Below, one piece after another: positions 30,219 through 56,360 of a stretch of DNA of 64,000 bases; position 1 is the first letter of the stretch, and each line of letters starts with the position of its first letter. The position numbers and the translations under genes were made by a program. The DNA is from Candidatus Aquabacterium excrementipullorum. GTDB taxonomy: Bacteria; Pseudomonadota; Gammaproteobacteria; Burkholderiales; Burkholderiaceae_C. The stretch lies in contig DXIO01000014.1 in assembly GCA_019112875.1 (NCBI GenBank), forward strand, positions 69,301-133,300, read 5' to 3'. Under the pieces are notes generated by a model, which had not been told where the DNA came from, searched no databases, and saw only the letters and a program-made list of their open reading frames with translations.

Positions 30219-30314
30219 GGGGTCTCCTTTCTGAGATCCGGGCCAGCCTTTTCATGCGGTGAAGGCGGCTGGCAAAACCGAGACTCCAGCGTAGGGGGCG
30301 GTCCGGCCGGGGGC

Positions 30315-30410
30315 AGTCAGTCGGCCCTGAAGTGCGGGTCAGCCATGCCTGACGGGCTGGCAAGGCCGATGTCAGCGCTTCTTGACACGCCCTGTCGGCA
30401 GGCGCCGATA
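30315..30410. promoter_or_regulatory. Four tandem palindromic boxes between the divergent PA2169-family and cls genes
   Basis: AGTCAG-N6-CTGAAG 30315, GGTCAG-N6-CTGACG 30337, TGTCAG-N6-TTGACA 30370, TGTCGG-N6-CCGATA 30393; -10-like TACGCT (minus, 30288-30293) and CACAAT (plus, 30432-30437). Confidence 0.7.
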
Positions 30411-30470
30411 GCCCGGCGGCCGGGCGCTGTACACAATAGGCCATCTGGATTGCGCGGACCGAGGTGTGGC

Positions 30471-31979
30471 GTGAGCCCTCAATCACAACAAGGACGAGTG
30501 CCGAGGAGACCCCATGAGCGATGCGACACCGAAGGTGCCCCACGCCCCCGTGCGCGGCCTGCTGCCCACATGCTGAGCTGCACGCTGGGTCTGGCCGCCC
30601 TGCTGGCGGGCTGTGGCTCGCTGGAGCCGCGGCGCCAGCCGGTCGTCGCCGACACCGTGGTGAGCAACGTACAGCTGGCGAGCCGGCTGCAGGTGGCCAC
30701 GGCCAACGACGACCTGCGGCGCCGCGAGCGCACCAACCTGATCGGGCAGCTGCAGTCCGAAGGGCGGCCTGACCTGGTCAAGCGCCACCTGGCCGCGATG
30801 ACCGCGCAGGAGCGTGTCCGGCTGGTGGCCGACAACGAGGTGCATCTGCTGGTGGACGGCCCCCAGACCTTCGCGGCCATGTTCAAGTCGCTGGAGGCGG
30901 CGCGGCGCTCGATCTGGCTGGAGAGCTACATCATCGAGGACGCCGACATCGCCGTGCGCCTGCGCGACCTGCTGATCCGCAAGCGCGCGCAGGGCGTGGA
31001 TGTGCGGGTGATCTACGACGCCGTGGGCTCCATCGGCACCTCGCGGGATTTCTTCCAGAGCCTGCGCGATGCCGGCGTGCACACCTGCGCCTTCAACCCC
31101 ATCAACCCGTTGAGCCGGCCCGGCTACTGGGGCATCAACCACCGGGACCATCGCAAGATCCTGGCCGTCGACGAGCAGCAGGCCTTCACGGGGGGCATCA
31201 ACATCTCCAAGGTCTACTCCTCGGGCTCGTCCTTCTTCAAGAAGCACAAGCCGCCCGAGGGCGAGGGCAAGGACAACGGCTGGCGCGACACGCAGGTGCA
31301 GATGGATGGCCCCGCGGCGGCCGAGATGGCCCGCATCGTGCGCCAGACCTGGGACGCGCAGGGCTGCAAGCCGGCCGTGGACCCGTCCATCGCGACGGGC
31401 AGCGATCCCAAGGGGGGCAAGAAGCGCGGTGACAAGGTCATGCAGGTGATCCCCAGCGGCCCCGATGAAAAGGGCATGGACACCTATGTGTCCCTGCTGA
31501 CGGCGCTGGACGCGGCGCAGCAGAGCATCCACATCACCATGGCCTACTTTTCGCCTGGCGAGGACATGGTGCAGGCCCTGTGCGATGCCGCGCAGCGGGG
31601 CGTGCAGGTGCAGCTGATCCTGCCGTCCATCAGCGATTTCAGCCCGGTGCTCTACGCCGGGCGCTCTTACTACGAGCGCCTGTTGCAGGCCGGCGTGAAG
31701 CTGTACGAACTGGACAGCGCCGTGCTCCATGCCAAGACGGCGGTGGTCGACGGGGTGTGGTCCACCGTGGGCTCCAGCAACATGGACTGGCGCAGCTTCG
31801 TGAGCAACAACGAGATCAACGTGGTGGTGCTGGGGCGCGACTTCGGGCAGGCGATGGAGGCGCAGTTTTCGCGTGACCTGGCCTCGTCCACCCCGATCGA
31901 GCCTGCGCAGTGGCCCAAGCGGCCGTTGATGGAAAAGCTCAAGGAGAAAGGCGCCCGCCTGTTCGAGCGCCTGATGTGA
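30471..31979 (+). CDS. Phospholipase D / cardiolipin synthase (ClsB-like)
   Basis: Two HKD motifs (HRKILAVD, HAKTAVVD), GSSNMD; LAGC lipobox-like segment; start is GTG 30471 (GAGG RBS) or ATG 30570. Confidence 0.88.
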   Translation: MSPQSQQGRVPRRPHERCDTEGAPRPRARPAAHMLSCTLGLAALLAGCGSLEPRRQPVVADTVVSNVQLASRLQVATANDDLRRRERTNLIGQLQSEGRPDLVKRHLAAMTAQERVRLVADNEVHLLVDGPQTFAAMFKSLEAARRSIWLESYIIEDADIAVRLRDLLIRKRAQGVDVRVIYDAVGSIGTSRDFFQSLRDAGVHTCAFNPINPLSRPGYWGINHRDHRKILAVDEQQAFTGGINISKVYSSGSSFFKKHKPPEGEGKDNGWRDTQVQMDGPAAAEMARIVRQTWDAQGCKPAVDPSIATGSDPKGGKKRGDKVMQVIPSGPDEKGMDTYVSLLTALDAAQQSIHITMAYFSPGEDMVQALCDAAQRGVQVQLILPSISDFSPVLYAGRSYYERLLQAGVKLYELDSAVLHAKTAVVDGVWSTVGSSNMDWRSFVSNNEINVVVLGRDFGQAMEAQFSRDLASSTPIEPAQWPKRPLMEKLKEKGARLFERLM

Positions 31980-32028
31980 TGAGTCGGTGAGGGGCAGGGC
32001 GCCGCGACGGCGTCCGCCCGTCCATGCC

Positions 32029-33159
32029 TCAGGCCATGATGGCCGAGTCGTGCACCGTGTCGTGCACGAAGCGCAGTTTCTGGCGCACCACCTCCGACAG
32101 GGCGAAGGGGTAGATGTCGTCCATGCCCATGCTGCGGTTCAGTGCATTGAGCGCCAGGCTCAGCGGCACCCAGCGCAGGATCAGCTGGTCGAAGTCGGGG
32201 CGCGTGTCACGCAGGATCTCTTCGCGCCGTGCCTTGCGGGCGGCTTTGCGGTCCTGGCCCGGCAGGCGCACGGAATCGGCGAAGTCATCGGCTGTTTCGA
32301 TCATGGCGCGCATGTGCATGTAGTGCGCCCAGGTCTCTGCCCAGCTCTCCCAGGGATGGGAGCTGGCGTAGGCGGAGATGTGTTCCTCGGCCCAGTCGGC
32401 CTGGGGCTGCTCGTAGTGGCGTTTGAGTGCCTCGCCATAGTCCTCGCGCTCGTCGCCGAAGAGTTCGCGGAAGGCATTGAGCCGCGCCTCCTGGGGCGCG
32501 ATGAGTTCGTCCCAGTAGAAGTGGCCGATCTCGTGGCGAAAGTGGCCAAGCACCGTGCGGTAGGGCTCGCCCAGTTGCTGGCGCGAGCGCACGCGTTCCA
32601 CATCGTCGGCTTCCGCCAGGTTGATCGTGATGTGACCGTGGTCGTGCCCGGTCATCACCTTGCAGCCCTGGTCAGGCAGGTTCTCCAGGAAGGAGAAGCG
32701 CAGCGGGTTGATGGTTTCGTGCTCGAACAGGGGCAGCCCCAGTTCACGCAGGTTGAACACCAGGCGGCGCTTGGCCGATTCCATCTTGTAGAGGGCGACG
32801 TGGCGCCCCTCCAAGGACAGGTTCGGAATGTCCCTTGTCAGCCGGCAGGATGCGCACAGCTCGTTGGGGTCACTGGCCTCGACGGCCCAGTTGCAGGTGT
32901 CTGTGCTCACGTAGTGGTGGCACAGGCGGTAGGCCGGGGCTTCCTCCTGGGGCAGGTCCGATGCGGCGGTGGCCTCGGGATCGATCGTGGCATCGGGCGA
33001 GGAGGGCGCCGCCACGCGCCACAGGCCATCGTCGCTGCGTTCCAGCGCGGCGACGCGGAACTGGTCGGGCAGAAAGGCCAGGGTATGGCCGCAGCCGACG
33101 CAGCGGGGGTTTTCGAAAAATACGGGGCTGTCGCAGTGGTCGCAGCGGAAAGTCCTCAT
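32029..33159 (-). CDS. Putative zinc-binding metallopeptidase with N-terminal zinc ribbon (DUF2248-like)
   Basis: CDHC...CVGC ribbon, CASC, TGHDHGHITI, GHFRHEIGHFYW (HExxH), SHPWESWAETWAHY. Confidence 0.82.
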   Translation of the reverse strand: MRTFRCDHCDSPVFFENPRCVGCGHTLAFLPDQFRVAALERSDDGLWRVAAPSSPDATIDPEATAASDLPQEEAPAYRLCHHYVSTDTCNWAVEASDPNELCASCRLTRDIPNLSLEGRHVALYKMESAKRRLVFNLRELGLPLFEHETINPLRFSFLENLPDQGCKVMTGHDHGHITINLAEADDVERVRSRQQLGEPYRTVLGHFRHEIGHFYWDELIAPQEARLNAFRELFGDEREDYGEALKRHYEQPQADWAEEHISAYASSHPWESWAETWAHYMHMRAMIETADDFADSVRLPGQDRKAARKARREEILRDTRPDFDQLILRWVPLSLALNALNRSMGMDDIYPFALSEVVRQKLRFVHDTVHDSAIMA

Positions 33160-33201
33160 GGGGTCCTCTTGTCGGGCGCCTCCACGGCCGGGCTCCTGCT
33201 G

Positions 33202-33555
33202 TCAGGCGGCGGGTGTCAACCCGGCCAGGAGCTTCTGAAGTTCATCCACATCGAAAGGTTTGGACAGGATGTGCACGCGCTCGGGCAGGTGAGGGCGGTA
33301 CATCTCGGCGCGGTGGCCCGTCAGCAGCAGGCCGTGCAACTGGGTGTTGTGCGCCATCACCTGGCGCATCAGTTCCAGGCCCGACATGCCGGGCAGTTCC
33401 AGGTCACTGATGAGCAGGTCGACGTTGTCGGCCTGCAGGGCCTCGCTTCCAGCTTCCGCGCTGTCGAATGCCCGCACATCGTGCCCCCACGATTGCAGCA
33501 GCAGTTCCACCATGTCCCTCACGTCGGGCGCGTCTTCGATGTAAATGATGTTCAT
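33202..33555 (-). CDS. Single-domain response regulator (REC only)
   Basis: IYIEDAPD, LISDLELPGMSG, LLTG, SKPF; no output domain. Confidence 0.88.
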   Translation of the reverse strand: MNIIYIEDAPDVRDMVELLLQSWGHDVRAFDSAEAGSEALQADNVDLLISDLELPGMSGLELMRQVMAHNTQLHGLLLTGHRAEMYRPHLPERVHILSKPFDVDELQKLLAGLTPAA

Positions 33556-33699
33556 CCGGTGTGGTTCAGGGCAGCAAAGAAAGCCAGAAATTCGGGAGCC
33601 AGCCACGGCGGCCGAGGGGGCGCCAGGCGTGCGAGGCGGTCATGGTATCCCATGCACCCCGCGCGTGGCAGACCGCCATGGCGAGTCCCCGGCGTTGGG

Positions 33700-34212
33700 T
33701 CAGGCCATCGCCGCCTGGTAGGCGTGATGGCGCGACAAGTCGTGGTCGGCGAAGCGCGTGGAAGTCGGCAGGGAACGTTCCAGCGAGCGGCGCAGCCGGT
33801 GCAGCATGGTCTCGCGCTGCTCCAGGTAGAACTCGCAGGCCAGGGCTTCGGCCTGCGGCGAAACACGCCACAGCGGCACCAGCATCTCCTCGGCCATCAA
33901 GGCGGCCTCGACTTTGGCGTGGACCACGTCGAACATCATGGCCCAGCTGTCATCGCTGGGGTTCATGGCGACCAGGCGGGGCAGGATGGCGTGGTAGCAC
34001 TCGCGTTCGGTGAAGCCGTGGTCCTCGGTCATGCTGCGGCCGCCCACCTCGGTGCGGCCCAGCGCGCTGTCGCGCGCCATCAGGAAGCACATCAGTTCGG
34101 CCAGGGCCTCGCGGCGCAGGTCAGGGTTGAGTTCGCCCATGCGCTTGATCGCATCCATGTACAGCCGCACGGTCGTGTGGTCGTCGGTCATCAGTCTGTG
34201 GAACTCACCCAT
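33700..34212 (-). CDS. Hemerythrin-like helical protein with degenerate metal ligands
   Basis: LMTDDH start, helical pattern and later AEE resemble HHE-type domains; GGAG RBS; family call is an inference. Confidence 0.55.
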   Translation of the reverse strand: MGEFHRLMTDDHTTVRLYMDAIKRMGELNPDLRREALAELMCFLMARDSALGRTEVGGRSMTEDHGFTERECYHAILPRLVAMNPSDDSWAMMFDVVHAKVEAALMAEEMLVPLWRVSPQAEALACEFYLEQRETMLHRLRRSLERSLPTSTRFADHDLSRHHAYQAAMA

Positions 34213-34232
34213 GTCGCACTCCAAGCTCTAGG

Positions 34233-34439
34233 TCAGGGGCGCTGGCCGCGCCCGGGTTTCTTGATCTGGTCCAAGCCGCGCATGCCGCGCAGATCGGTGT
34301 CTTGCTGGCCGGACTCGATGTCCTGGCGGGCCTGTTCGATGACGCCTTCCTGATCGGGTCCGACGTCGTGGTGGTCCTGATCGCGTTCATGGGGCAGCCG
34401 GGCTTCGGACGCGGAATGAGGGGCTTTGTTCTGCTTCAT
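34233..34439 (-). CDS. Small hydrophilic hypothetical protein (68 aa)
   Basis: GGAG RBS; fills the gap between BON and hemerythrin-like genes on the same strand; QARQDIESGQQDTDLRG. Confidence 0.6.
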   Translation of the reverse strand: MKQNKAPHSASEARLPHERDQDHHDVGPDQEGVIEQARQDIESGQQDTDLRGMRGLDQIKKPGRGQRP

Positions 34440-34557
34440 GGTGGTGTCTCTCCATGCAATGTTCGATCCTCATTCCGCGTCCGACGTCGCCATCTGGCCA
34501 AGGGAGTCGGCACGGGCCGCTTGGATCTCCCCTGCCAGGTGGATCCTGGCGTGCGCG

Positions 34558-35070
34558 TCAGGAGGTCTTGTCGACCGTCAGACGGTTGACCACATTGGTC
34601 ACGCCACTGACGGCCTGGGCCAGCTCGGAGGCGCGGCCCAGCGATTGGACGTCGGGGGCCACGCCGGTCAGGGTGACCTGGCCATCCTTCGTGTCCACGT
34701 TGATCTTGGTGGCCTTGAGCTTGTCGTCGGCGGCCAGCGCGGCGTTCACCTTGGTGGTGATGGTGGCGTCGGACACACCGGACTTGATCTTCTGGCCCAA
34801 CGCGTCCGCCTTGGCGCTGGCGCTGGCCGAGGCATCGGCCGACGCGTTCTTGGCGTCGTTCAAGGCGACCTGGGTGTCGGCCTTCAACTCGGCGGCGTCC
34901 TTGCGGGCCTCGGTGGCGGCGTTGTCGGCGGCGCTGGAAGCACTGGCGATGGCGCTGTCGAGTTGCTGGCCGGCCGTGCGTTCGTCGTGGCGGTTGCAGC
35001 CGCTCAGGGCCACGGTGCCCAGGAGGGCCAGGGTGGCGGGAACGATCAGGCGTTGTTTGAAGGTGTTCAT
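34558..35070 (-). CDS. BON-domain (OsmY-like) lipoprotein
   Basis: Lipobox ALSGC, Ala-rich helical linker, SDATITTKVNAAL...INVDTKDGQVTLTG...VTNVVNRL; AGGAG RBS. Confidence 0.9.
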   Translation of the reverse strand: MNTFKQRLIVPATLALLGTVALSGCNRHDERTAGQQLDSAIASASSAADNAATEARKDAAELKADTQVALNDAKNASADASASASAKADALGQKIKSGVSDATITTKVNAALAADDKLKATKINVDTKDGQVTLTGVAPDVQSLGRASELAQAVSGVTNVVNRLTVDKTS

Positions 35071-35164
35071 TGCTGTTCTCCTGTTCTGTCGGGATCCGGA
35101 GGCAAGCCAGACCGGCCTCCGCATGGGTTGAACGATAAGAGCAGGGACCGCGGCCAACCAGTCA

Positions 35165-36670
35165 TCACAGGCCGATTCCCATGTCGGCGCATGCTGACAA
35201 TGGGGACGCAGGACGCATCGTGGCCTGCCCGGCCAACTGGGCGCGGGCATGGCCCAGGGCCGTGCGCACGGCCTCTTCGACCACGGGGTGGTAGATGGGA
35301 CAGTCCAGCAGGGTGTCCAGCGTCTGGCCCTGGTGCACGGCCCAGGCGAGCAGGTGGGCCAGGTGCTCGGCGCACGGGCCGATCATTTCCGCGCCGAGCA
35401 CCACGCGCCGTTGGCGGCACACGTAGACGCGAAGCGCGCCGCGGTTCATGTCCTTGATGCGGCTGCGTCCCTGGTCGGTGAAATCCGCCACGCCCACCAC
35501 GAAGGGATGAGCGACCTTGCTCAGATCTTCGTGTGAACGACCGAGCGCCGCGATCTGCGGATCACAGAACACGATGCGCAGGGGCGTGCGCCGCCCGCCT
35601 TCGAGGGGCGCTTCGGGCAGGTGGCTGGGGGGGCCGGGTTGCGCCACGGCCTGCGTGGCCGCGCGGCGGCCATCGAGCACGGCCTCGTGCAGCAGCGGGT
35701 GCGCGCCGCTGACATCGCCCGCGAGGAAGACGCAGCTGTCGCCCACGCGGGTGCTGCGATCCTGGTAGCCGGTGAGCTGTCCTTTGTCCAGCGTCAGGCC
35801 GCCCTGGGACAGGTCCAGGCCATCGAGCACGGGTTCGCGGCCGATGCACACCAGCACTCGTTCGACCACGGTGCTGCCGCGCTCGCCACCCACGTCGAAA
35901 TCCACGCGGGCCTGGCCGCCGTCGACCTCGGTCATGCCGCGCACATTGGCTCGCGTGATCAAGGTGATGCCTTCGGACAGCAGGGGAATCGCCAGCGGTC
36001 GCAGGGCAGGATCCTTCAGCCCGCCAGGCGCCTCTTCGCGCATGAGCCACACCACGCGAACGCCCAGCCGGTTGAGGGCCTGGGCCATCTCCGTGCCGAT
36101 GGCGCCCCCGCCGATCACGGCGATGGAGCGGGGCAGGGTGGGCAATTCGAACAGGGTGTCGGTGGTGAGCAGTTGACCCCCGAGTGCAGCCCGCCAGGCC
36201 TCGGGCACGACGGGACGTGATCCCGTGGCCAGCACGATGCTGCGGGCTTTCACGGTCGCATGCTCGTCCACCTGCAGCATGCAAGGCCCGATGAAGCGGG
36301 CCCGGCCTGCCAGCCGGTGCGCGGCGGGCCAGGCTTCGGCCTCGCGCACGACGCTGTCGACGAAATCGTCGCGCAATTCGCGCAGGCGGGCCATCACGGC
36401 GGCACCGTCGACCTGCGCACCCACGGCCTTGATGCCCAGGCGGTGAGCCTGGCGGATCGCGTGGGCACGGCTGGCTGCCTCGATCAGCAATTTGCTGGGC
36501 ATGCAGCCCGCGCGTGCGCACAGCGTGCCGTAGCCGCTGGACTCGATGAGCACCAGGCGCGACGTCTGTCGCGCAGCGGCCTTGTAAGCCGCCATGCCGG
36601 CCGATCCCGCCCCCACGATGGCCAGGTCGACATCCAGATGCTTGAGCCCTTGCTTGAGGGCGGCGGCCAC
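35165..36670 (-). CDS. Class I pyridine nucleotide-disulfide oxidoreductase (dihydrolipoyl dehydrogenase-like)
   Basis: IVGAGSAG FAD site, redox-active CARAGC, IGGGAIGTE, FLAGDV, YHPVVEE; GTG start just after the DUF3309 stop. Confidence 0.85.
   Translation of the reverse strand: MAAALKQGLKHLDVDLAIVGAGSAGMAAYKAAARQTSRLVLIESSGYGTLCARAGCMPSKLLIEAASRAHAIRQAHRLGIKAVGAQVDGAAVMARLRELRDDFVDSVVREAEAWPAAHRLAGRARFIGPCMLQVDEHATVKARSIVLATGSRPVVPEAWRAALGGQLLTTDTLFELPTLPRSIAVIGGGAIGTEMAQALNRLGVRVVWLMREEAPGGLKDPALRPLAIPLLSEGITLITRANVRGMTEVDGGQARVDFDVGGERGSTVVERVLVCIGREPVLDGLDLSQGGLTLDKGQLTGYQDRSTRVGDSCVFLAGDVSGAHPLLHEAVLDGRRAATQAVAQPGPPSHLPEAPLEGGRRTPLRIVFCDPQIAALGRSHEDLSKVAHPFVVGVADFTDQGRSRIKDMNRGALRVYVCRQRRVVLGAEMIGPCAEHLAHLLAWAVHQGQTLDTLLDCPIYHPVVEEAVRTALGHARAQLAGQATMRPASPLSACADMGIGL
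35182..35199. promoter_or_regulatory. Palindromic box upstream of the BON gene, embedded in the 3' end of the flavoprotein CDS
   Basis: TGTCGG-CGCATG-CTGACA; -10-like TATCGT on the minus strand (35132-35137) starts 45 nt away. Confidence 0.75.
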
Positions 36671-36672
36671 CG

Positions 36673-36831
36673 TCAGATGTGGCCCATCAGGACCAGGATC
36701 ACCAGGATCACCACCACCAGGCCCAGCCCGCCGGTCGGGCCGTAGCCCCAGTTTCGGCTGTGAGGCCAGGTGGGCAGGGCGCCGATGAGCATCAGCAGCA
36801 GCACGATCAGAAGGATGGTTCCCAGTGTCAT
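36673..36831 (-). CDS. DUF3309-family small membrane protein (52 aa, not in the ORF track)
   Basis: MTLGTILLIVLLLMLIGALPTWPHSRNWGYGPTGGLGLVVVILVILVLMGHI; GGAG RBS. Confidence 0.9.
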   Translation of the reverse strand: MTLGTILLIVLLLMLIGALPTWPHSRNWGYGPTGGLGLVVVILVILVLMGHI

Positions 36832-36911
36832 GGTGTTCTCCTCGTTGTCTTCGATGAGGCCACTGTAGGGAGTCGGTCACAGCGCTGGCATCAGCGGACA
36901 GCGCGATCGGA

Positions 36912-36959
36912 TGTAGGCCCTGACCTACCCGACAAAACACTTGTCGGCATCGGCCTACA
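36912..36959. promoter_or_regulatory. Tandem palindromic boxes (30-bp period) between the divergent DUF3309 and secreted-protein genes
   Basis: TGTAGG-CCCTGA-CCTACC 36912 and TGTCGG-CATCGG-CCTACA 36942; -10-like TACAGT on the minus strand (36862-36867) 45 nt away. Confidence 0.78.
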
Positions 36960-37116
36960 GACCTATCAGCGGATGCTGCCGCCAATGTCGGCGTGCGCCC
37001 CCATGCAGCGCTGTGGGGCGGCGGCGAAACTGCATGGCGTCACTTCAACGGCCTCGTCGCTGAGAGGCCACTGCCTGAAGTGCCTTGTTTGCGAAACGAA
37101 CCACACGGAGAACTCC

Positions 37117-37692
37117 ATGAAAAAGACCCCCCACATCGCCCGCACCGCCATCCAAGCCCTGGCCTTCGCCGCTGGTGGCCTGTTCCTGGCTGCCGCCACG
37201 CACGCCGCGGACACCCACAAGGGCAGCAAGGAAGCGTACGAGCACACCAAGTCCGAAGCCAAGGCCAAGTACGACGCGGACACGGAAAAGTGCAAGTCGC
37301 TCAGCGGCAACGCCGCCGATGTGTGCAAGGCCGAAGCCAAGGTTCAGCGCGTGACGGCCGTGTCCACCGCCGAAGCGCAGTACAAGAACACGCCGAAGGC
37401 TGCTTACGAAGCCCGCAAGGACATCGCTGGCGCCCAGTACGACCTGGCCAAGGAAAAGTGCGACGACAAGACCGGCAACGACAAGGACGTGTGCAAGAAG
37501 GAGGCCGAAGCCGCCCACACCGCCGCCAAGGCCGATGCCGAAGTCAAGCTCAAGACCCGCAAGGCCATCAACGATGCCACGGAAGACAAGGCCGATGCGC
37601 AGTATGCTGCTGCCAAGGAAAAGTGTGACTCGCTGGCCGGTGACGCCAAGGACGCCTGCCAGGCCAAGGCCAAGGCTGACTTCGCCAAGTAA
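37117..37692 (+). CDS. Secreted Ala/Lys-rich helical protein with three C-x10-C repeats
   Basis: Signal peptide ending ATHA; EKCKSLSGNAADVC, EKCDDKTGNDKDVC, EKCDSLAGDAKDAC; GGAG RBS. Confidence 0.85.
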   Translation: MKKTPHIARTAIQALAFAAGGLFLAAATHAADTHKGSKEAYEHTKSEAKAKYDADTEKCKSLSGNAADVCKAEAKVQRVTAVSTAEAQYKNTPKAAYEARKDIAGAQYDLAKEKCDDKTGNDKDVCKKEAEAAHTAAKADAEVKLKTRKAINDATEDKADAQYAAAKEKCDSLAGDAKDACQAKAKADFAK

Positions 37693-37772: not shown

Positions 37773-38522
37773 ATGAACCTGGATGGCTGGTGGTACGCCG
37801 TGAGTGTTCCGTTGTCTTCCCTGCCCTTAGTTCAGCGCCCTGTCGAGGCCGCCTTGCCGAACCCTGATTCGGTGAGGCTGGAGGTGCTACAGCGCGTGGT
37901 GCCCTCGATGCGCCACGATCTGATGAACCAGCTGATGGTGATCGAACTGCGCACCACGCTGCTCAAGGCCTCACTGAGCCAGCAGGGCGATACGCCCATG
38001 GCCACGACAGAAGCCGTCGGCGCCTTGTGCGACGACATCCGCGAGGCCATCGATGTGGGGCGCGGGCTGGCGCGCTGGATGCACAGCCTGGAGCCCGTCG
38101 GGCTGGACCGCGTGGTGGAGGCCTGCCATGGCTGGGTCGGGCTGGCGTTCAAATGCCGCGAGTTGTCGCTGGACGTGCTGGCGCCCATCCCCGGCGAGAA
38201 CGGCGAGCCGCCCGTGTGGCCGTCGGCCGCCTCGGTGGAGGCCTACTTCGGCTTGCTGGCCGTGCTGTGGTACTGGTTCGACCATGACGAATCGGTCGGT
38301 GCGCGCCTGAGCGTGCAGGCCGAAGGTGGGCGTGGCTGTCGCTGGCACCTGCATGTGCCCGAGACCCTGGGCGACCTCGATCCCGCGCAGGGGTGGGAGA
38401 TGGCGCACCGCATGCGACTGGACCAGGAAGCCTTGCGCGGCCTGCTGCAGGCGCAGGGATGGGAATGTCGTTTCGACGGCCCGACGAGCCTGTGGATGGG
38501 CAGCCCCGCCTCAGGGGTGTGA
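37773..38522 (+). CDS. Degenerate histidine-kinase-like protein, possible phosphotransferase (start uncertain)
   Basis: H-box-like MRHDLMNQL in a helical hairpin; no recognisable N/G1/G2 ATP boxes; alternative start GTG 37800. Confidence 0.6.
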   Translation: MNLDGWWYAVSVPLSSLPLVQRPVEAALPNPDSVRLEVLQRVVPSMRHDLMNQLMVIELRTTLLKASLSQQGDTPMATTEAVGALCDDIREAIDVGRGLARWMHSLEPVGLDRVVEACHGWVGLAFKCRELSLDVLAPIPGENGEPPVWPSAASVEAYFGLLAVLWYWFDHDESVGARLSVQAEGGRGCRWHLHVPETLGDLDPAQGWEMAHRMRLDQEALRGLLQAQGWECRFDGPTSLWMGSPASGV

Positions 38523-38918: not shown

Positions 38919-38999
38919 GGGAGGGCCTCCCGGAAGTCAAGGGTGCCCCAGTGTCCTGCGGGGGCGACACAGGGGATGTCGGTCGGGTGCGCGATGTGG

Positions 39000-39017
39000 T
39001 GTCAGGGCTGCCTGACA
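39000..39017. promoter_or_regulatory. Perfect palindromic box upstream of the REC gene, overlapping the kinase stop codon
   Basis: TGTCAG-GGCTGC-CTGACA; -10-like GACACT on the minus strand (38950-38955) 45 nt away. Confidence 0.78.
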
Positions 39018-44849: not shown

Positions 44850-45001
44850 GGGCATTCCGGATGGCGCGATGGCCTTGAAGGGGGACAAGCGGCCGATCGA
44901 AACCAACCGTTGGATCTTCGAACGGATGTTTGATCGGGCAGGAGCGGGGCGATGTTACCGAGCGGACTCCTGCCCACCTCGTCAGGCTCGGCGGATTGTG
45001 G

Positions 45002-45049
45002 TGTAGGGGGATGCTGACACGGCGTGCCGTTTGTCAGCAGCAGCCGACA
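45002..45049. promoter_or_regulatory. Tandem palindromic boxes (30-bp period) between the divergent kinase operon and the YbhP-like gene
   Basis: TGTAGG-GGGATG-CTGACA 45002 and TGTCAG-CAGCAG-CCGACA 45032; -10-like TAACAT (minus, 44952-44957) and TAAGGT (plus, 45094-45099), each 45 nt from the nearer box. Confidence 0.8.
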
Positions 45050-45139
45050 GGGGGTTCAGGCGCGGACGACAGCCCGCCCGCAGGGGGCTCGCTTAAGGTG
45101 ATGACGACTTGTTTCACGGCCCTCCGTGCCCCGTACGCC

Positions 45140-45937
45140 ATGTACCGAGACCCTTCCAGTGAACCGGTGACCCACCCGCGCGTCACAGGCGATGCGAGCG
45201 CCCCGCTCACCGTCCTGACCTTGAACCTGCACAAGGGCTTCACGGCCATGAACCGGCATTTCGTGCTGCCGGCGCTCAAGGCGGCTGTGCAGCAGTGCGA
45301 TGCCGACATCGTCTTCCTGCAGGAGGTGCTGGGCCAGCATGACACGCATGCGCAGCGCATTCGTGGCTGGCCCGCCCAATCGCAGTACGAATACCTGGCC
45401 GACAGCATCTGGCGCGATTTCGCCTACGGGCGCAACGCCGTCTACCCGCATGGCCACCATGGCAACGCAGTGCTGTCCAAATTTCCCATCGTGGCCTGGC
45501 GCAACCAGGACGTGTCAGTGCACACCATCGAGAAGCGGGGCCTGCTCCACGGCGAACTGGACTGGAAGACGCGCGGCAAGACGCTGCACGTGATCTGTGC
45601 CCACCTGGGCCTGCTGGAAAGCCAGCGCCAGGAACAGATCCGCCGACTGGTCAACCTGATCAACGATCAGGTGCCGCCCGATGCGCCGCTGATCATCGCG
45701 GGCGATCTGAACGACTGGCGCCAGCGCGGCCACCCGGCCCTGCTCAAGGCCGGCCTGCGCGAGGTGCACCACAGCCTGCGCGGCCGCCTGGCCAAGACCT
45801 TCCCGGCGCGCATGCCCGTGCTGCCGCTGGACCGCGTCTACGTCCGCAACCTGGAGCCCGTGTCCGTACGGGTGTTGTCGCAGGCGCCATGGAACCGCCT
45901 GTCCGATCACGCAGCCGTGCTGGCGGAGGTGGCCTGA
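45140..45937 (+). CDS. Endonuclease/exonuclease/phosphatase-family protein (YbhP-like)
   Basis: LTLNLHKG, DIVFLQEV, YGRNAVYPHGHHGNAVLSKFPI, AGDLNDW, LDRVY, LSDH. Confidence 0.9.
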   Translation: MYRDPSSEPVTHPRVTGDASAPLTVLTLNLHKGFTAMNRHFVLPALKAAVQQCDADIVFLQEVLGQHDTHAQRIRGWPAQSQYEYLADSIWRDFAYGRNAVYPHGHHGNAVLSKFPIVAWRNQDVSVHTIEKRGLLHGELDWKTRGKTLHVICAHLGLLESQRQEQIRRLVNLINDQVPPDAPLIIAGDLNDWRQRGHPALLKAGLREVHHSLRGRLAKTFPARMPVLPLDRVYVRNLEPVSVRVLSQAPWNRLSDHAAVLAEVA

Positions 45938-47719: not shown

Positions 47720-47737
47720 TGTCAGTCCATGCTGACG
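47720..47737. promoter_or_regulatory. Palindromic box upstream of the GSP26-AsmA operon
   Basis: TGTCAG-TCCATG-CTGACG; -10-like CAATCT (47782-47787) 45 nt away. Confidence 0.75.
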
Positions 47738-47821
47738 CGCACACGCGCCATGCGCTGATGGCAACGCCGCCCCGACTGGCGCAATCTGGCCCCATCTTTT
47801 TTCCATACCCCAGGAGATGCC

Positions 47822-50406: not shown

Positions 50407-50433
50407 AAAGGCCGCCCAACCGGGCGGCCTTTT
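50406..50433. terminator. Perfect bidirectional intrinsic terminator
   Basis: AAAAGGCCGCCC-AACC-GGGCGGCCTTTT. Confidence 0.9.
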
Positions 50434-50473
50434 CATTTCTTCTTTCCTCGTCCTCGTCCTTGCCCGGCGCCCT

Positions 50474-50818
50474 TCAGGCCGTGTGCACGCGCATCAGCGG
50501 GGTCAGCACACCGTTGATGCGGGTGCGCACTTCCAGCCAGGGGTGCTTGCGATGGGCAAGGTGGCGACGCACCGCCTCGGCGGCGGCATGCATCAGGCCG
50601 CGGCGGGTGGGCTGGCCGCCGCGGCACAGGCCGCGCGGGATCACCAGGGCGATTTCCTGCGGCCGCTGGGGGCGATCGGCCACGGCCAGCATGCAGGGCA
50701 CCACCACCACCTTGTGATTGGCCAGGCTCACTTCCACATCATGGGTCTGTTCGTGGGGCTCCTCGGTATCGTCGGCGCTCAGGACATCGTCCAGCTCCTT
50801 GATGGTCACGATCTTCAT
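50474..50818 (-). CDS. Hypothetical protein (~114 aa)
   Basis: MKIVTIKELDDVL...; GAGG RBS; preceded by a palindromic box and -10-like TAGCAT. Confidence 0.6.
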   Translation of the reverse strand: MKIVTIKELDDVLSADDTEEPHEQTHDVEVSLANHKVVVVPCMLAVADRPQRPQEIALVIPRGLCRGGQPTRRGLMHAAAEAVRRHLAHRKHPWLEVRTRINGVLTPLMRVHTA

Positions 50819-50913
50819 GGCTTGTACCTCGTTATCGTTGTCGCGCTCTTTCAGCATGGGTCTCATGCTAGGCAGAGGCATGGAGCGCGTCTGTCGTCAA
50901 GGACTGTTTGCCA

Positions 50914-50992
50914 TGTAGGCATGGACCGACCCTGCTCGAGGGGTGCGGGGCATGGACTTTTCGGTCAACCAAGGCGTCGGCTCCGGCTGACA
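50914..50992. promoter_or_regulatory. Two palindromic boxes between the divergent hypothetical and DUF1328 genes
   Basis: TGTAGG-CATGGA-CCGACC 50914 and CGTCGG-CTCCGG-CTGACA 50975; -10-like TAGCAT (minus, 50865-50870) 44 nt from 50914. Confidence 0.75.
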
Positions 50993-51113
50993 CGGGGATC
51001 AGCCGCTGCTGGCGCTGGCCGGCGTTGGTCGCCGACTGCCGCGGTGCCTGGTGGGCGGCAGCATCCTTGCATGGCCGCCGGTCTTCGTGGCGACCCCAAG
51101 AAAGGACCTGATC

Positions 51114-51290
51114 ATGTTGAAATGGGCTCTGATATTCGCGCTGATCGCCGTCGTGGCCGGTCTGCTGGGCTTCACGGGCGTGGCGGCGGGCGCAGCCTCG
51201 ATCGCCAAGGTGCTGTTCGGGATCTTCCTGGTGCTGGCCCTGGTCGTGCTGCTACTGGGCGTTCTTGGCGTCAAGGCGTTCAGCCGCTGA
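51114..51290 (+). CDS. DUF1328 (YtjA-like) small membrane protein
   Basis: [38 protein letters not shown]; AAGGA RBS. Confidence 0.9.
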
Positions 51291-51941
51291 CGATGCCGCC
51301 GCCGCTGCGGCCGCCCGCCGGGTGGGCAGCAGCGGCACCTCGCGGGACACGATGCCCGCGAGATCCTTCATCAAACCGGCCATGGCGTCGGTCTGGGCAG
51401 CGGCTCCCGAGCCGCTGCCCTTGCTTTGCAGAGGCTGGCTGCTGGTGCGAAGCACCTGGCCATCTTCACCCAGCAAGGTCCACTGTGCCCAGGCCGTGAG
51501 GTTCTGCGAAGCACGGTCGTAATCCAGGGGCGAGAGGCTCACCAGCAGCCGTACGGGCCGGCGCGACGCGCCTTCGCAGCGCAGCGGGCACAGCTGCCAC
51601 GGCGTCGGCAGCGCATGTTCCAGCTCAATGGACAGGTTGCGCGTGAGCCCCACCTCCACGCGTTCAGCCCACACCGTGTCCTCCCAGGATTTGAGTTCGC
51701 TGCCCTCGCGGTAACGCACCGAGCGCGATTGCCAGTATTCCGGAATGTCCAGCCGGCCCAGCTGCAGCCAGCGCGTGCCGGCATTGCCAGCGCTGGCGGA
51801 GGCCTGCGGCAGGGAAGGCGTGGGCAGCGCGAGCACGGTCTGGGGCGGCGGGCTGCTCGCGCAGCCAGCAAGCAGTGCGGCCAGCGTGAGTGTCAAGGTG
51901 CCGGCCCAGCAGGCGGGGCGGGTGATCTGGCGGATGGGCAT
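51252..51941 (-). CDS. PqiC-like ABC-transport auxiliary lipoprotein
   Basis: Lipobox LLAGC, IPEYW, WAERV; last gene of the MCE operon. Confidence 0.78.
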
Positions 51942-51952
51942 GGGGTGTCTCC

Positions 51953-52912
51953 TCAGCGGCGCCCGAAGATCAGGGCGTTGGGCTGGTTCTCCAGCAGTTC
52001 GGCCACCTGGCGCAGGCTGCGCGCCGTCAGCGACAGATCGCGCAGGGTGGATTCCAGGTCTTCACGCGGGGCAGAGCCCGGCGCCGACAGTTCGGCGAAG
52101 GATTGCATGCTCACCTCGACAGAGCGCGCGGCGTCCCGGGCGGATGCCAGGGTGAGCGCCACGTCTGGCTGGGTGGCTGCCACCAGGTTGTTGGTCGTGT
52201 CCGACAGGCGCTGCACGGATTGCAGCGTGCCATTGGCCTGCTGTCCCACCGATTGCAGCGTGCGGTCGGTGTTGCGCATGATCTCCTGCGCGGCCAGCGA
52301 GGCCTGGCGCCAGTCTTCACCGGCCTGCTTCATCACTTTCTGCGCGGCCACGGAGGTCTGCTGCAGTTCACCCAGCGTGCGGCGCAGGTCGCCCACCGTG
52401 TCCTTGAGCGGCAGCTCGCTGATTTGGGCCACCAGGTCGTCGAACGCCCCCTTGACCACGGGAATCTCCACGCTGCGGCTTTCCGGATCGCCATGCAGGG
52501 CCAGCGGTGACTTGGGATCGAAATCCAGGTCGATCAGGGCCTGGCCCGTGACCAGGCTCTGCTGCGCCAGCCGGGCTCGCAGGCCGCGCTGCACCAGCTG
52601 GCGAAGGTCCATGTTGTCCTGGCCTCCGCTCATCTGCAGCAGCTTGGAGGTGATGAACAGTTGCACCGGCACGCGTGTGACCAAGTTGTTCGGATCGACC
52701 TCGATGCCGATGGCGTCCACCTGGCCGATGGGCACGCCCCGGAAGGTGACGGGGGCGCCCACGTACAGGCCCTTGACGCTGTTGGTGAAGTAGACGACCG
52801 CGCGCACGCGCTGTTCGAACAGGCGGTTGCCGCCCAGGAAGGTGATGGCCGCGGCCGCCAGGGCCAGCGCCGTCAGCACGAACAGGCCGATCAGCAGGGC
52901 ATTGCGTTTCAT
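51953..52912 (-). CDS. MCE-domain (MlaD-family) protein with helical C-terminus
   Basis: N-terminal TM, YFTNSVKGLYVGAPVTFRGVPIGQV, GLRARLAQQSLVTG, LENQPNALIFGR. Confidence 0.9.
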   Translation of the reverse strand: MKRNALLIGLFVLTALALAAAAITFLGGNRLFEQRVRAVVYFTNSVKGLYVGAPVTFRGVPIGQVDAIGIEVDPNNLVTRVPVQLFITSKLLQMSGGQDNMDLRQLVQRGLRARLAQQSLVTGQALIDLDFDPKSPLALHGDPESRSVEIPVVKGAFDDLVAQISELPLKDTVGDLRRTLGELQQTSVAAQKVMKQAGEDWRQASLAAQEIMRNTDRTLQSVGQQANGTLQSVQRLSDTTNNLVAATQPDVALTLASARDAARSVEVSMQSFAELSAPGSAPREDLESTLRDLSLTARSLRQVAELLENQPNALIFGRR

Positions 52913-53664
52913 GACGAAGGCTCCTGTCGCGCCAGGAAGGCGCGCACGGTGGGATGGGTGTCGGTGGCGCTTTTGAGATCAGCGGGTTTGCCGCGCGCGA
53001 TGGGGCGCTTGCTCTCGGCGTCCAGGAAGATGCCGTCGTCGGCGATGGACAGCAGGCTTTCGAGCTCGTGGCTCACGATCAGCACGGCGGCACCGGTGCG
53101 GTCGCGCAGGTCGGTGATGAGCTTGTCCAGCCGCACGGAACTGATCGGGTCCAGACCGGCGGAGGGCTCGTCGAAGAACAGGAAATCGGGCTCGCCGGCG
53201 ATGGCGCGGGCCAGGCCGGCGCGCTTCTTCATGCCGCCGCTGAGGTCAGAGGGGCGCTTGTCGGCAGCGTCTTCCATGCCCACCCATGAGAGCAGCTCCA
53301 GCGCGCGGTCGCGGCGTTCGGCCTTGGCCATGTCGGGCGATTTGAGCTCCAGCGGCACGATCACGTTGTCGAGCACGCTCATCGAGGTCCACAGCGCGGC
53401 ACTCTGGAACAGCACGCCGAAGCGCTGGCGGATCTGGCGCTGCTGCGCTTCGTTCGCGGCCCAGTAGTCCTCGTCGTCGATCAGCACCTGGCCTTCGTAA
53501 GGGCACAGCAGGCCGATCATGTGCTTGAGCAGGGTGCTCTTGCCGCAGCCACTGCCGCCCATGATGGCGAACACGGTGCCCGATTCCACCGAGAAGTCGA
53601 TGCCTTCCTGGATCAGCCTGTCGCCGAAGCGCATCGTGAGGTTCTTGACGTCCAGGCGGCTCAT
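52909..53664 (-). CDS. ABC transporter ATPase (MlaF-like)
   Basis: GGSGCGKST, LSGGMKKRAGLARA, FFDEPSAGLDP, VSHEL. Confidence 0.92.
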   Translation of the reverse strand: MSRLDVKNLTMRFGDRLIQEGIDFSVESGTVFAIMGGSGCGKSTLLKHMIGLLCPYEGQVLIDDEDYWAANEAQQRQIRQRFGVLFQSAALWTSMSVLDNVIVPLELKSPDMAKAERRDRALELLSWVGMEDAADKRPSDLSGGMKKRAGLARAIAGEPDFLFFDEPSAGLDPISSVRLDKLITDLRDRTGAAVLIVSHELESLLSIADDGIFLDAESKRPIARGKPADLKSATDTHPTVRAFLARQEPSS

Positions 53665-53668
53665 GGGC

Positions 53669-54469
53669 TCAGATGTCCAGTGCGTTGGCGCACACGGCGA
53701 AGATGGCGTCCAGCGCGATCACGCCCACGATGCCGGCCACCACGGCCTTGGTGGTGGCGCGGCCCACGCCAGCGGCGTCCCGGCTGGCTGTCATGCCGGC
53801 GTAGCAGCCGCCGATGGCGATCAGCACGCCGAAGACGACCGTCTTGCTCATGCCCAGGCCCACGTAGCTCAGCGGGCTGGCCAGCAGCGCACGGTCGAAA
53901 TAGGCCTGGGGGTTCAGATCGAGCATGGTGGTGCCCACGGCCATGCCGCCCAGCAGCGCGGCCACGCACCCGTACACGTAGAGCAAGGGCATCATCACCA
54001 GCAGGGCCAGCACGCGCGGCAGCACCAGGTAGCCGATGGGGTCGAGCCCGAGCACGCGCAGCGCGTCGATCTCTTCATTGGCCTGCATGGTGGCCAACTC
54101 GGCGGCGAAGGAGGCCGCGGTGCGCCCGGAGATCACCACGGCCGTGATGACGGCGGCCATCTCGCGCGTGACGGCGATGCTGACCAGGTCGGCCACGTAG
54201 ATGCCCGCGCCGAACTTCACCAGCTGCACCGCCCCCACGAAGGCCAGGATGGCCCCCACCAGCGCGTTGACCACCAGCACGATGGGCAGGGCCTGGGCGC
54301 TGGCCTCGTTGAGCACCCTGAGCAGGTCGGGCCGGCGAAACTGCCAGCCCTTGAGCGCCCGGCCACTGGCCAGCAGCACCTCTCCCAGGAAGGCCACGGG
54401 CAGCAGCCACGCGCTCAGGCGTGACTGCAGGCGAAGCTTGGTGGAAGAAGGGGCCGCCGGTTTGGGCAT
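53669..54469 (-). CDS. MlaE-family permease
   Basis: REMAAVITAVVISGRTAASFAAELATMQANEEIDALRVLGLDP, VLPR, GVGRATT. Confidence 0.92.
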   Translation of the reverse strand: MPKPAAPSSTKLRLQSRLSAWLLPVAFLGEVLLASGRALKGWQFRRPDLLRVLNEASAQALPIVLVVNALVGAILAFVGAVQLVKFGAGIYVADLVSIAVTREMAAVITAVVISGRTAASFAAELATMQANEEIDALRVLGLDPIGYLVLPRVLALLVMMPLLYVYGCVAALLGGMAVGTTMLDLNPQAYFDRALLASPLSYVGLGMSKTVVFGVLIAIGGCYAGMTASRDAAGVGRATTKAVVAGIVGVIALDAIFAVCANALDI

Positions 54470-54478
54470 GGCCCTATT

Positions 54479-55321
54479 TTAGAAGCGCAGGCGCAGGTAG
54501 ACGGCCGGGCCGTCGAGTTCCAGCCGCACACGGGCCGTGGCGGCGTCGTCCTTCTGCTTCAGGCGGATGCGGGTGGAGGCGTACTCCGCGCCGATACCGA
54601 CGTTCTTCCAGGGGAACCATTCGGCGCCGATGGCGGCGTTGGTGATGGTGCCCGACAGGTCGCTGCCGTTCTTGCGCACGCCCGACAGGTCGGCGTAGAG
54701 GCGCACCTGCTCGGACACCTTGGCACGCCAGCCCAGGGTCACCAGAGGGGCCCAGCCGGACTCGTCGTAGCGCTGGATGGTGTTGTAGCCGATGGGGCCC
54801 ACGCCCACCGATGCGCGCAGGGTGGCGTCGAGCTTGTAGTACGCCGCGCCCAGGCCCAGGCCGAACACGTTGTTGTTGCTCTGGTCACCGAACCACCAGC
54901 GGTACGAGAAGTTGCCGATGTCCAGCGTGGTGTCGGAGGCCACGCGGCCGGCGGCGGTGTAGTTCACGCCACCGAAGGTGAAGGGCTGCTCGATGCTGCG
55001 GGCGCTGTCGTCGTGGATGCGGAAGTAATCCACCGAGAAGCCCTGGCTGTCCATGATCAGCCAGTCGAGGCGGGCGCGCTCGACGGTCTTCTTGCCCGAC
55101 AGGAACTGTTGGTCCCCCGTGTCGATGTTGTTGGACGGGTCACGCACGGAGGCGAAACCGTCGATGTCGGCGCGGTAGCCGCCCAGCCAGATGCTGACAC
55201 GGTCCAGCGCCGGCGAGGGCTCGGCCCGCGCGACGCGCGGTGCCAGGCTCCACACGGCCGTGGCGGCGATGACAGCGGTGGTGAAGATGAATTTCTGATT
55301 TTTGTTCACGATAGGCCTCAT
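54479..55321 (-). CDS. Predicted outer-membrane beta-barrel protein of unknown family
   Basis: Signal peptide ending ARA, amphipathic beta strands, C-terminal YLRLRF beta-signal; ATG overlaps the ferritin-like stop (ATGA). Confidence 0.8.
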   Translation of the reverse strand: MRPIVNKNQKFIFTTAVIAATAVWSLAPRVARAEPSPALDRVSIWLGGYRADIDGFASVRDPSNNIDTGDQQFLSGKKTVERARLDWLIMDSQGFSVDYFRIHDDSARSIEQPFTFGGVNYTAAGRVASDTTLDIGNFSYRWWFGDQSNNNVFGLGLGAAYYKLDATLRASVGVGPIGYNTIQRYDESGWAPLVTLGWRAKVSEQVRLYADLSGVRKNGSDLSGTITNAAIGAEWFPWKNVGIGAEYASTRIRLKQKDDAATARVRLELDGPAVYLRLRF

Positions 55322-55896
55322 TCGAGCATGTCCTTGAGTTCGTCGGCGTGTTCCTCCTCGACGCTGAGGATGGACTCCAGCATGCGTCGGGTGGTCGGGT
55401 CTTTGTCGCCGATCAGGGCGACCATCTGTCGGTAACTTTCGATGGCCACGCGTTCGGCCACCAGGTTGGCACGCACCATGGCCTTGAGGTCCGTGGAGGT
55501 GTCGTAGTCGGCATGGCTGCGTTCCAGGATGCCGACCGGGTTGAAGTCCGGCTCGCCGCCCAGCTGGATGATGCGTTCGGCGATCTGGTCGGCATGGGCC
55601 GCTTCTTCGTTGGCGTGCACCATGAACTCTTCGGCGATCTTGGGCGAGGCCAGGCCGTGTGCCGTGAAGTGATGGCGCTTGTAGCGCAGCACGCACACCA
55701 GTTCGGTGGCCAGCGCGCCATTGAGCAGGCGCACGATCTCGTCGCGCCAGGGACCGTAGCTGGGCGTCACGGCACCTTCGTCGATGCCTTGGCGGGCCGC
55801 TTCGATGGCGTCCTCATCCAGGGTCAGCGAGTGGATGGCGTCGTTGGCCTGCGGTCGACCGCGCGGTGTGGACGGTTGGGTGGCTGGGTGAGACAT
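55318..55896 (-). CDS. Bacterioferritin-like / ferritin-like protein
   Basis: LATELVCVLRY, EEAAHADQIAERIIQLGGEP, AERVAI, EEEHADEL diiron ligands; AGGAG RBS. Confidence 0.88.
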   Translation of the reverse strand: MSHPATQPSTPRGRPQANDAIHSLTLDEDAIEAARQGIDEGAVTPSYGPWRDEIVRLLNGALATELVCVLRYKRHHFTAHGLASPKIAEEFMVHANEEAAHADQIAERIIQLGGEPDFNPVGILERSHADYDTSTDLKAMVRANLVAERVAIESYRQMVALIGDKDPTTRRMLESILSVEEEHADELKDMLE

Positions 55897-55999
55897 CTCA
55901 CGCTCCTGAAGGGCTGCTTGTCAGTGCCGGCAGGCCGGCGAAGTGCGGGATGGCGCGTCCGTGGGGACGGAAGGGTCGCGCCACCCCGCCGCTCATGTG

Positions 56000-56197
56000 T
56001 CAGTGGGTGGAGGTCCAGCTGTCCACTTGACGCTCGGCCTCATCCTTGGCGATGCCATAGCGTTCCTGGATGCGGCCGACCAGTTGCTCACGGCGGCCTT
56101 CGATCTTGTCGAAGTCGTCGTCGGTCAGCTCGCCCCACTGCTCCTGCACCTTGCCCTTGAGTTGCTTCCAATTGCCTTGCACGCGATCCCAGTTCAT
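56000..56197 (-). CDS. csbD: CsbD-family general stress protein
   Basis: MNWDRVQGNWKQLKGKVQEQWGELTDDD...GRIQERYG. Confidence 0.92.
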   Translation of the reverse strand: MNWDRVQGNWKQLKGKVQEQWGELTDDDFDKIEGRREQLVGRIQERYGIAKDEAERQVDSWTSTH

Positions 56198-56314
56198 GGC
56201 CTTGTCCTTTCGGTGGTGATTCGAGGGAAATTGCCCGCTGTGTGTCAGTTCGGGCAGTCGAATGCACTGTAGGAACGCGCCGTCGGGCCGTCTGTAGTCA
56301 AGTGATGAAGCTGG

Positions 56315-56360
56315 CGTCAGCAAGCGCTGACGTCTCGTTACGCGTCAGATGCGGCTGACA
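56315..56360. promoter_or_regulatory. Tandem palindromic boxes (28-bp period) between the divergent csbD and hypothetical genes
   Basis: CGTCAG-CAAGCG-CTGACG 56315 and CGTCAG-ATGCGG-CTGACA 56343; -10-like TACAGT (minus, 56266-56271) 44 nt from 56315. Confidence 0.78.

Follow-up and report, generated by a model that had tools for sequence, protein, structure and literature searches.

The DNA considered here, hereafter the window, is a 64,000-nucleotide stretch (C98:69301-133300) of the genome of Candidatus Aquabacterium excrementipullorum (G000), a 99.99%-complete genome of 4.75 Mb with a G+C content of 67%. A block, or island, of stress-type genes fills 29.7-56.8 kb of the window, including DUF2383, cls, BON, DUF3309, YbhP-like EEP, pyridoxamine-oxidase-like ('GSP26'), DUF1328 and CsbD genes, together with a ferritin-like gene and an MCE transporter. 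The block also encodes a phosphorelay that comprises a GAF-HisKA-HATPase-3xREC hybrid kinase, CheR, CheB, a REC-HK protein and a lone REC protein. Promoters within the block carry an 18-bp palindrome, TGTCAG-N6-CTGACA, hereafter the box, at a fixed distance from a -10-like hexamer, and the architecture of these promoters, and the regulator that may act on them, are the subject of this analysis. The half-sites CCGACA and CCTACA are frequent, and the consensus of the strong inverted repeat is TGT(C/A)(A/G)G-N6-C(T/C)(G/T)ACA.

Seven sites matching TGTCA-N8-TGACA with at most one mismatch are present in the window against 1.35 expected, and six of the 16 palindromes in the genome that match at 11 or more of 12 positions lie inside the 26-kb block. 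An earlier note on this DNA had described ten promoters in which box and hexamer are separated by 44-45 nucleotides, and all ten pairs were reproduced with the same coordinates, letters and offsets, the offset being the coordinate of the first hexamer base minus the coordinate of the last box base. The counts of hexamers that fit TANNNT (seven of the ten) and of hexamers that have CC just before them (four) were likewise recovered. In contrast, the 37117, DUF1328 and 56463 genes, for which the rule was thought to fail or to be weak, all obey it when the correct in-phase box is used; in the case of DUF1328, the strong box that had served as the reference is exactly 22 bp farther upstream. When the 13 box-bearing promoters of the window were oriented and offsets of 1-94 were scanned, NANNNT was found at offset 45 in ten promoters and at offset 44 in three, whereas other offsets had this pattern in three promoters at most, with a mean of 0.24. 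In addition, the two promoters of a divergent pair do not share a box but have one each (30337/30370, 45002/45032 and 56315/56343), though one palindrome could serve both directions. Separate boxes are what a strict distance rule would require of divergent promoters, and their presence thus argues that the spacing is a real constraint.

Downstream of the box (box 1) is a degenerate copy of it (box 2), with a left half-site of (A/T)TC(A/G)G and a right half-site of CYGAC(A/T). When all downstream 18-mers were scored in 27 promoters, the second-box score peaked at a start of +5 (6.22 versus 3.99 +/- 0.51), with a score of 5.11 at +6; a start at +5 or +6 leaves a gap of 4-5 bp, and thus places the centres of the two boxes 22-23 bp apart. 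The degenerate score averages 11.0/12 for box 1 and is about 8/12 for box 2. Four promoters, those of orf37117, DUF1328, a response regulator gene and a BON-kinase gene pair, the last two on another contig of the same genome (C130), have a third box exactly 22 bp upstream. The end of box 2 is 21-22 nucleotides from the hexamer, and no -35 consensus was found in this region, the match to TTGACA at spacers of 16-18 being 2.65/6 as compared with 2.24 for random sequence. Use of the third half-site as a -35 element was considered and rejected, as it would require a spacer of 21-22 bp.

The earlier note had assigned the box to a single class I activator position at about -74 to -57. This span holds if transcription starts about 7 nucleotides past the hexamer, and all positions quoted here (-74, -57, -43 and -35) depend on this assumption about how far the start lies from the -10. 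With such a predicted start site, the box centres would fall near -65.5 and -43, and box 2 would end at about -35. Class I sites of the CRP-like kind do not touch the -35 region and are centred near -61.5, -71.5 and so on. A centre near -65.5 could suit a model in which one dimeric activator, bound at a single class I site, recruits RpoS or RpoD holoenzyme through the alpha C-terminal domain, with the downstream block not bound by protein, and the CC that precedes four hexamers would suit the RpoS version of such a promoter. However, a single class I site is made decidedly unlikely by the enrichment of the second box-like element at +5/+6, by the conservation across genomes of CYGAC(A/T), its half-site on the promoter side, by the 22-bp phase that the three-box promoters hold, and by the absence of rpoS from the genome and the genus (see below). 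An enriched and conserved second box, 4-5 bp downstream and centred near -43, points instead to a tandem-dimer layout that reaches the -35 region.

For the sigma factor, the earlier leaning towards RpoS is contradicted by the gene content of these bacteria. No rpoS gene is present in this genome, where the best match to TIGR02394 (279.8 bits, cut-off 378.7) is RpoD, and the next matches are RpoH (383.9 bits with TIGR02392, cut-off 323.1) and then FliA. The same holds for 24 of 24 sampled genomes of the genus, none of which has a match above the TIGR02394 cut-off, whereas this cut-off is passed in eight of 16 other families of the order. Genome G139 has a sub-threshold TIGR02394 match of 362.7 bits that lies 118 bases from a contig end and may represent contamination. 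With no rpoS, the promoters would be of the RpoD type, and the argument that had been drawn from a C at -13 would lose its basis; a C is found directly before the hexamer in four of the 13 window promoters, and about one third would be expected by chance at 67% G+C. The suggestion that the hexamer is a -10 element has fared better, as it behaves as the conserved -10 element of an activator-dependent promoter. Promoters of the sigma-54 or extracytoplasmic function (ECF) type were rejected after inspection by eye, with no formal scan, since neither GG-N10-GC nor AAC/CGT is found in the conserved blocks. An RNA hairpin or terminator was also rejected, as one half-site can change without the other (TGTCAG...CCGACA), the boxes have no T-run after them and are located upstream of the predicted starts, and Rfam gave no match.

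The close relatives used for comparison are Aquabacterium soli and metagenome-assembled genomes of Aquabacterium or Burkholderiales, and boxes were found only in the four closest (L001-L004) of 80 YbhP loci examined. Alignment of the window with L001-L004 reveals one footprint pattern common to all promoters, in which the half-sites are invariant while N6 changes, about 25 nucleotides after the box are conserved, and 15-20 freely varying nucleotides are followed by a conserved hexamer. Hexamer variants across the relatives include TAAGGT/TAACGT, TAACAT/TACCAT/TAATAT, GCAATCT, TACGCT and CACAAT, in addition to TATCGT, TACAGT/TAGAGT, GACACT and TAGCAT/TAACAT/TAAGAT. In the relatives, NANNNT occurs at offset 44 in 13 sites, at 45 in 14 and at 46 in three, with six or fewer at any other offset. 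One-base shifts are seen between orthologous promoters (45 to 44 for ybhP and cls, 45 to 46 for the kinase promoter), indicating that the spacing tolerance is about plus or minus one.

Individual promoters of the window illustrate this architecture. The DUF2383 (PA2169-like) promoter (30288..30354, minus strand) has box 1 at 30337-54 (CGTCAGGCATGGCTGACC), box 2 at 30315-32 (CTTCAGGGCCGACTGACT) and a -10 of TACGCT at 30293-30288 (offset 44), and is conserved in L002 and L003. The divergent cls promoter (30370..30437, plus strand) has box 1 at 30370-87 (TGTCAGCGCTTCTTGACA), box 2 at 30393-410 (TGTCGGCAGGCGCCGATA) and CACAAT at 30432-37, with an offset of 45 that becomes 44 in L002 and L003. A 20-codon upstream open reading frame (ORF; MSDATPKVPHAPVRGLLPTC) with a strong Shine-Dalgarno sequence is found at 30514-30576 on the plus strand, and its end, ATGCTGA, overlaps the cls start at 30570, an arrangement that suggests translational coupling with cls; this ORF is not conserved in L002 or L003. 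The promoter of the BON-domain gene (35132..35199, minus strand), with box 1 at 35182-99, box 2 at 35160-77 (AATCGGCCTGTGATGACT) and TATCGT at 35137-32 (offset 45), has both boxes and the hexamer unchanged in L001-L003. For the DUF3309 promoter (36862..36929, minus strand), box 1 at 36912-29 (GGTAGGTCAGGGCCTACA) is a weaker variant of the TGTAGG/CCTACA type (TAGG/CCTAC), box 2 ends in CTGATG, and TACAGT is positioned at 36867-62 (offset 45).

The orf37117 promoter (36942..37031, plus strand) has three in-phase boxes at 36942-59 (TGTCGGCATCGGCCTACA), 36964-81 (TATCAGCGGATGCTGCCG) and 36986-37003, and it is from the middle box that GAAACT, at 37026-31, is at offset 45; CACACT occupies the same position in L001-L003. 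Downstream of this three-box promoter there is probably also the gene for a 249-amino-acid protein (37773-38522, plus strand), which has an H-box-like helix, MRHDLMNQL, but no match in Pfam or NCBIfam, and which adjoins the REC-HK gene in L001-L003. The lone receiver (REC) gene has a promoter (38950..39017, minus strand) with a perfect box 1 at 39000-17, box 2 at 38977-94 ending in CCGACA, and GACACT at 38955-50 (offset 45). The kinase-operon promoter (44952..45019, minus strand) consists of box 1 at 45002-19 (minus strand, TGTCAGCATCCCCCTACA), box 2 at 44980-97 ending in CTGACG, and TAACAT at 44957-52, with an offset of 45 here and 46 in L002-L004. In the predicted 5' untranslated region of this promoter, the sequence AACATC(C/T)GTTCGAA (about 44919-44940, minus strand) is kept in all five genomes. 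What differs is the first gene after the promoter, which in L002-L004 is REC-HK directly; genes for the hybrid GAF kinase, CheR and CheB occur only in this genome and in A. soli.

Divergent from the kinase operon, the promoter of the YbhP-like (EEP family) gene (45032..45099, plus strand) has box 1 at 45032-49, box 2 at 45054-71 (GTTCAGGCGCGGACGACA) and TAAGGT at 45094-99 (offset 45, or 44 in L001-L004), upstream of a conserved start codon at 45140. The GSP26, or pyridoxamine-oxidase-like, promoter (47720..47787, plus strand) has box 1 at 47720-37, box 2 at 47743-60 ending in CTGATG, and CAATCT at 47782-87 (offset 45), and its block CTGACGCGCACxxGCGCCATGxGCTGATGG is identical across five genomes. 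In the orf50818 promoter (50865..50931, minus strand), box 1 at 50914-31 (GGTCGGTCCATGCCTACA) is again of the weaker TGTAGG/CCTACA type, box 2 ends in ACGACA, and TAGCAT is at 50870-65 (offset 44). The DUF1328 promoter (50975..51064, plus strand) has three in-phase boxes, a strong box at 50975-92, a weak one at 50997-51014 (GATCAGCCGCTGCTGGCG) and a third at 51020-37 ending in CCGACT, with CAGCAT at 51059-64 (offset 45, counted from the middle box). Lastly, the csbD promoter (56266..56332, minus strand) has box 1 at 56315-32, box 2 at 56293-310 and TACAGT at 56271-66 (offset 44), and the divergent orf56463 promoter (56343..56410, plus strand) has box 1 at 56343-60, box 2 at 56365-82 and GAGCAT at 56405-10 (offset 45).

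Taken together, the promoters are probably rigid, tandem-site, activator-dependent RpoD promoters of the BvgA/GacA type, with a NarL/FixJ response regulator encoded on C130 as the candidate activator. Dimers of one transcription factor would occupy the sites one after another along the same helical face, with binding that begins at the strong upstream site and spreads cooperatively to the weak proximal site, where the bound dimer would contact RNA polymerase in place of the absent -35 element. In a cooperative array of this kind the distance from box to hexamer could not drift, and divergent promoters would each need their own box. An opposite role is conceivable, in which the boxes are operators and cooperative binding of a repressor to boxes 1 and 2 blocks the -35 region until stress relieves it; the predicted end of box 2 at about -35 makes such occlusion geometrically possible, and palindromes of the PpsR type do work by repression. 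However, there is no -35 consensus and many of the -10 hexamers are unlike TATAAT, so that the promoters should be weak when unaided, and the strongest site is outside the polymerase footprint, on its upstream side. Moreover, activation rather than occlusion would be expected to keep the boxes in constant phase with the -10 over more than 35 promoters. Repression is thus highly improbable, and activation is favoured by the lack of a -35 consensus and by the location of the strongest site upstream.

The architecture is not confined to the window. Outside it, oriented matches of at least 10/12 number 180, of which 20 show NANNNT at offset 44 or 45 as compared with 9.2 expected (binomial P of about 0.001), a test that is crude because most of the matches are chance occurrences and one control pair of offsets also gave 20. 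When box, flank and hexamer were combined in a position-weight model, about 27 sites scored 24 or more at the true offset, whereas seven did so at a control offset. About 20 further promoters elsewhere in the genome obey the rule, and their target genes encode a KatE-like catalase, GlgX, CsbD, two BON proteins, two OmpA-like lipoproteins and OsmC, in addition to cyanase, DUF3606 proteins, small membrane proteins and a sensor kinase. The regulon would thus comprise about 35 promoters, and resembles a general stress response, here in a genus that lacks RpoS. The combination of box, box 2 and a hexamer at 44-46 is specific, as illustrated by genomes G127 and G178, which have 12-14 bare matches and no real sites. 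Counting the bare pattern proved too noisy to gauge the regulon in the family and genus, and was rejected. In most genomes of the family, including those without promoter-type sites, bare TGTCAG-N6-CTGACA with at most one mismatch exceeds a reversed control; these family-wide sites look like coding sequence, and may reflect a codon or composition effect.

A match to the model at C130:26147 pointed to the NarL/FixJ response regulator at C130:26355-26990, which has REC and GerE domains and a recognition helix of LSSKTVSTYRSRLLEKMG. The best NCBIfam family is UvrY/SirA/GacA (NF007018), but the score of 170.7 bits is below the cut-off of 280, so that the protein does not count as a GacA orthologue; among solved structures, the nearest are DevR, VraR and EvgA. 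The promoter of the regulator gene has three boxes, with a perfect TGTAGG-N6-CCTACA (TGTAGGGCATGACCTACA), a 4-bp gap, and then GATCAGGATGACCTCACA and ATGACCGAC, and has TAAGGT at 44 from the second box (GATCAG-N6-CTCACA), an architecture that is kept in four relatives. The gene is part of a second regulon locus (C130:25293-33792) with two three-box promoters, where an OmpA-like gene has its own box and a 1152-amino-acid dCache-PAS hybrid kinase with two receivers is encoded. The other three-box promoter of this locus has a perfect box at C130:30228 and lies upstream of a BON lipoprotein gene, after which comes, on the same strand, a gene for a CHASE3-HisKA_3 kinase; the kinase gene would be under the control of this box only if it is co-transcribed with the BON gene. 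The factor that binds the boxes would most likely be this GacA-like regulator, acting with the CHASE3-HisKA_3 kinase, and the position of both genes behind three-box promoters would provide positive feedback.

The distribution of the regulator bears on this assignment. Orthologues in four box-bearing Aquabacterium genomes are 98-99% identical to it. An orthologue with 85% identity is present in G112, a member of a different genus, in which the rule is fully obeyed at two of ten pattern matches; here, box and box 2 are found upstream of the regulator gene, with TACAAG at offset 46, one base farther and without the final T. In 14 other genomes the best match is at most 51% identical, and G127 and G178, which have no orthologue (41-42%), have no rule-obeying site among 40 oriented pattern matches. 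In a search for autoregulation, none of the other 22 GerE genes or of 10 HTH_8 genes has a rule-obeying box upstream. No box is found at any DNA-binding gene of the island, and no DNA-binding protein was found among its unannotated ORFs. A LuxR-type regulator in the window (16725-17405) was considered and rejected, since it lacks both a box and a counterpart in G112.

Several observations weigh against the assignment. In G139, where the orthologue is 83% identical, the rule holds for only one or two of 14 oriented sites, and no box is found upstream of the regulator gene in G139 or in G126 (66% identity). The regulator and kinase genes on C130 are convergent rather than in one operon, and a link between the phosphorelay of the window and the candidate regulator may be no more than conjecture. 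The co-occurrence of regulator and regulon could simply reflect shared ancestry, because other lineage-specific genes would show the same pattern.

The same layout could also be bound by a factor of another family, such as a PpsR/TyrR-like protein with a Fis-type helix-turn-helix, a LysR-type tetramer or a CRP-family protein, with the C130 regulator merely one of its targets. LysR-type regulators typically bind near -65 (the recognition binding site) and -35 (the activation binding site), which resembles the predicted positions of the boxes, but they recognise sites of odd symmetry (T-N11-A) as opposed to the 6-6-6 box found here. The genome encodes 11 HTH_8 proteins and a CRP-like protein, yet the autoregulation search revealed none among the HTH_8 and other GerE genes with its own box. 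Also counting against the C130 candidate, the PpsR/CrtJ consensus, TGTcaN8tgACA, has letters identical to those of the box (PMC2654016). However, the ppsR gene is absent, the best match to TIGR02040 being 26.9 bits against a cut-off of 275.4, and published PpsR sites are 7-8 nucleotides apart and overlap the core promoter (PMC2654016). In addition, dimers in a 22-bp phase and a 6-6-6 box like that of GacA suit the NarL family, making a factor of another family rather unlikely.

A broader proposal is that, in the Aquabacterium lineage, the GacA-like regulator and the CHASE3 kinase have assumed the part played by RpoS in other bacteria, directly activating about 35 RpoD-type stress promoters through BvgA-style dimer arrays, including those of the regulator's own gene, the kinase and the CheR/CheB-modified phosphorelay. 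This is put forward tentatively, with the balance tilting somewhat against it. If true, it would represent a third way to a general stress response, besides alternative sigma factors and partner switching. Much of the family, like the genus, is without RpoS, and in the literature searched the control of stationary-phase, osmotic and oxidative protection in these bacteria is not described. The analysis provides a motif, a geometric rule that sorts real sites from chance matches and is useful for annotation, a list of genes, and a named candidate regulator and kinase.

Among known systems, the closest likeness is to the BvgA promoters of Bordetella, including Pfha and Pptx, where head-to-head dimers bind at 22-bp intervals on one helical face, the strong site being upstream and the proximal one adjoining the -35 region (PMC7250471). 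In both cases the inverted-repeat sites are about 22 bp apart from centre to centre (22-23 bp here), the strongest site is farthest upstream, and the weakest abuts the -35 region, here under the assumed start site. Both hosts belong to the Burkholderiales, and BvgA, like the candidate regulator, is a NarL/FixJ protein. The half-sites differ, being TGTCAG/CTGACA here and TTTCCTA heptads for BvgA, as do the number of sites (two or three here, three to six for BvgA) and the regulon, which is for stress protection here and for virulence in Bordetella. Moreover, the sites described here are predicted binding sites.

The box itself most resembles the upstream activating sequence of GacA, TGTAAG-N6-CTTACA, an 18-bp element at about -75 of rsmY (PMC4950607). 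Like the GacA/UvrY/SirA element it is an 18-bp 6-6-6 inverted repeat, but with one symmetric position changed; variants of the TGTAGG/CCTACA type are nearer still. Unlike the regulon described here, with about 35 promoters of protein genes, a fixed geometry and a second site, GacA drives a few small-RNA genes from a site at a variable distance. The PpsR/CrtJ operators of purple bacteria, TGTcaN8tgACA, often paired (PMC2654016), share the consensus letters and the 18-bp length, but members of a pair are 4-5 nucleotides apart here as opposed to 7-8, and the boxes lie upstream of the core promoters of stress genes, whereas PpsR sites overlap the -35/-10 region of photosynthesis genes to repress them. 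A SpdR/RegA-type regulator was rejected, as the published SpdR site, CTGCGAC-N5-GTCGCAG, differs from the box.

In gene content, the regulon is similar to those of RpoS in gamma- and beta-proteobacteria, SigB and EcfG, with which it shares catalase E, OsmC, CsbD, OsmY/BON and glycogen genes, in addition to cls/YbhP, Dps-like and small membrane proteins. What defines those regulons is an alternative sigma factor with its own -35 and -10 elements, whereas the element shared here is an upstream palindrome, predicted to bind protein, on promoters of the RpoD type. The regulon is thus new and well defined, and its mechanistic kind, that of BvgA and GacA, is already known.

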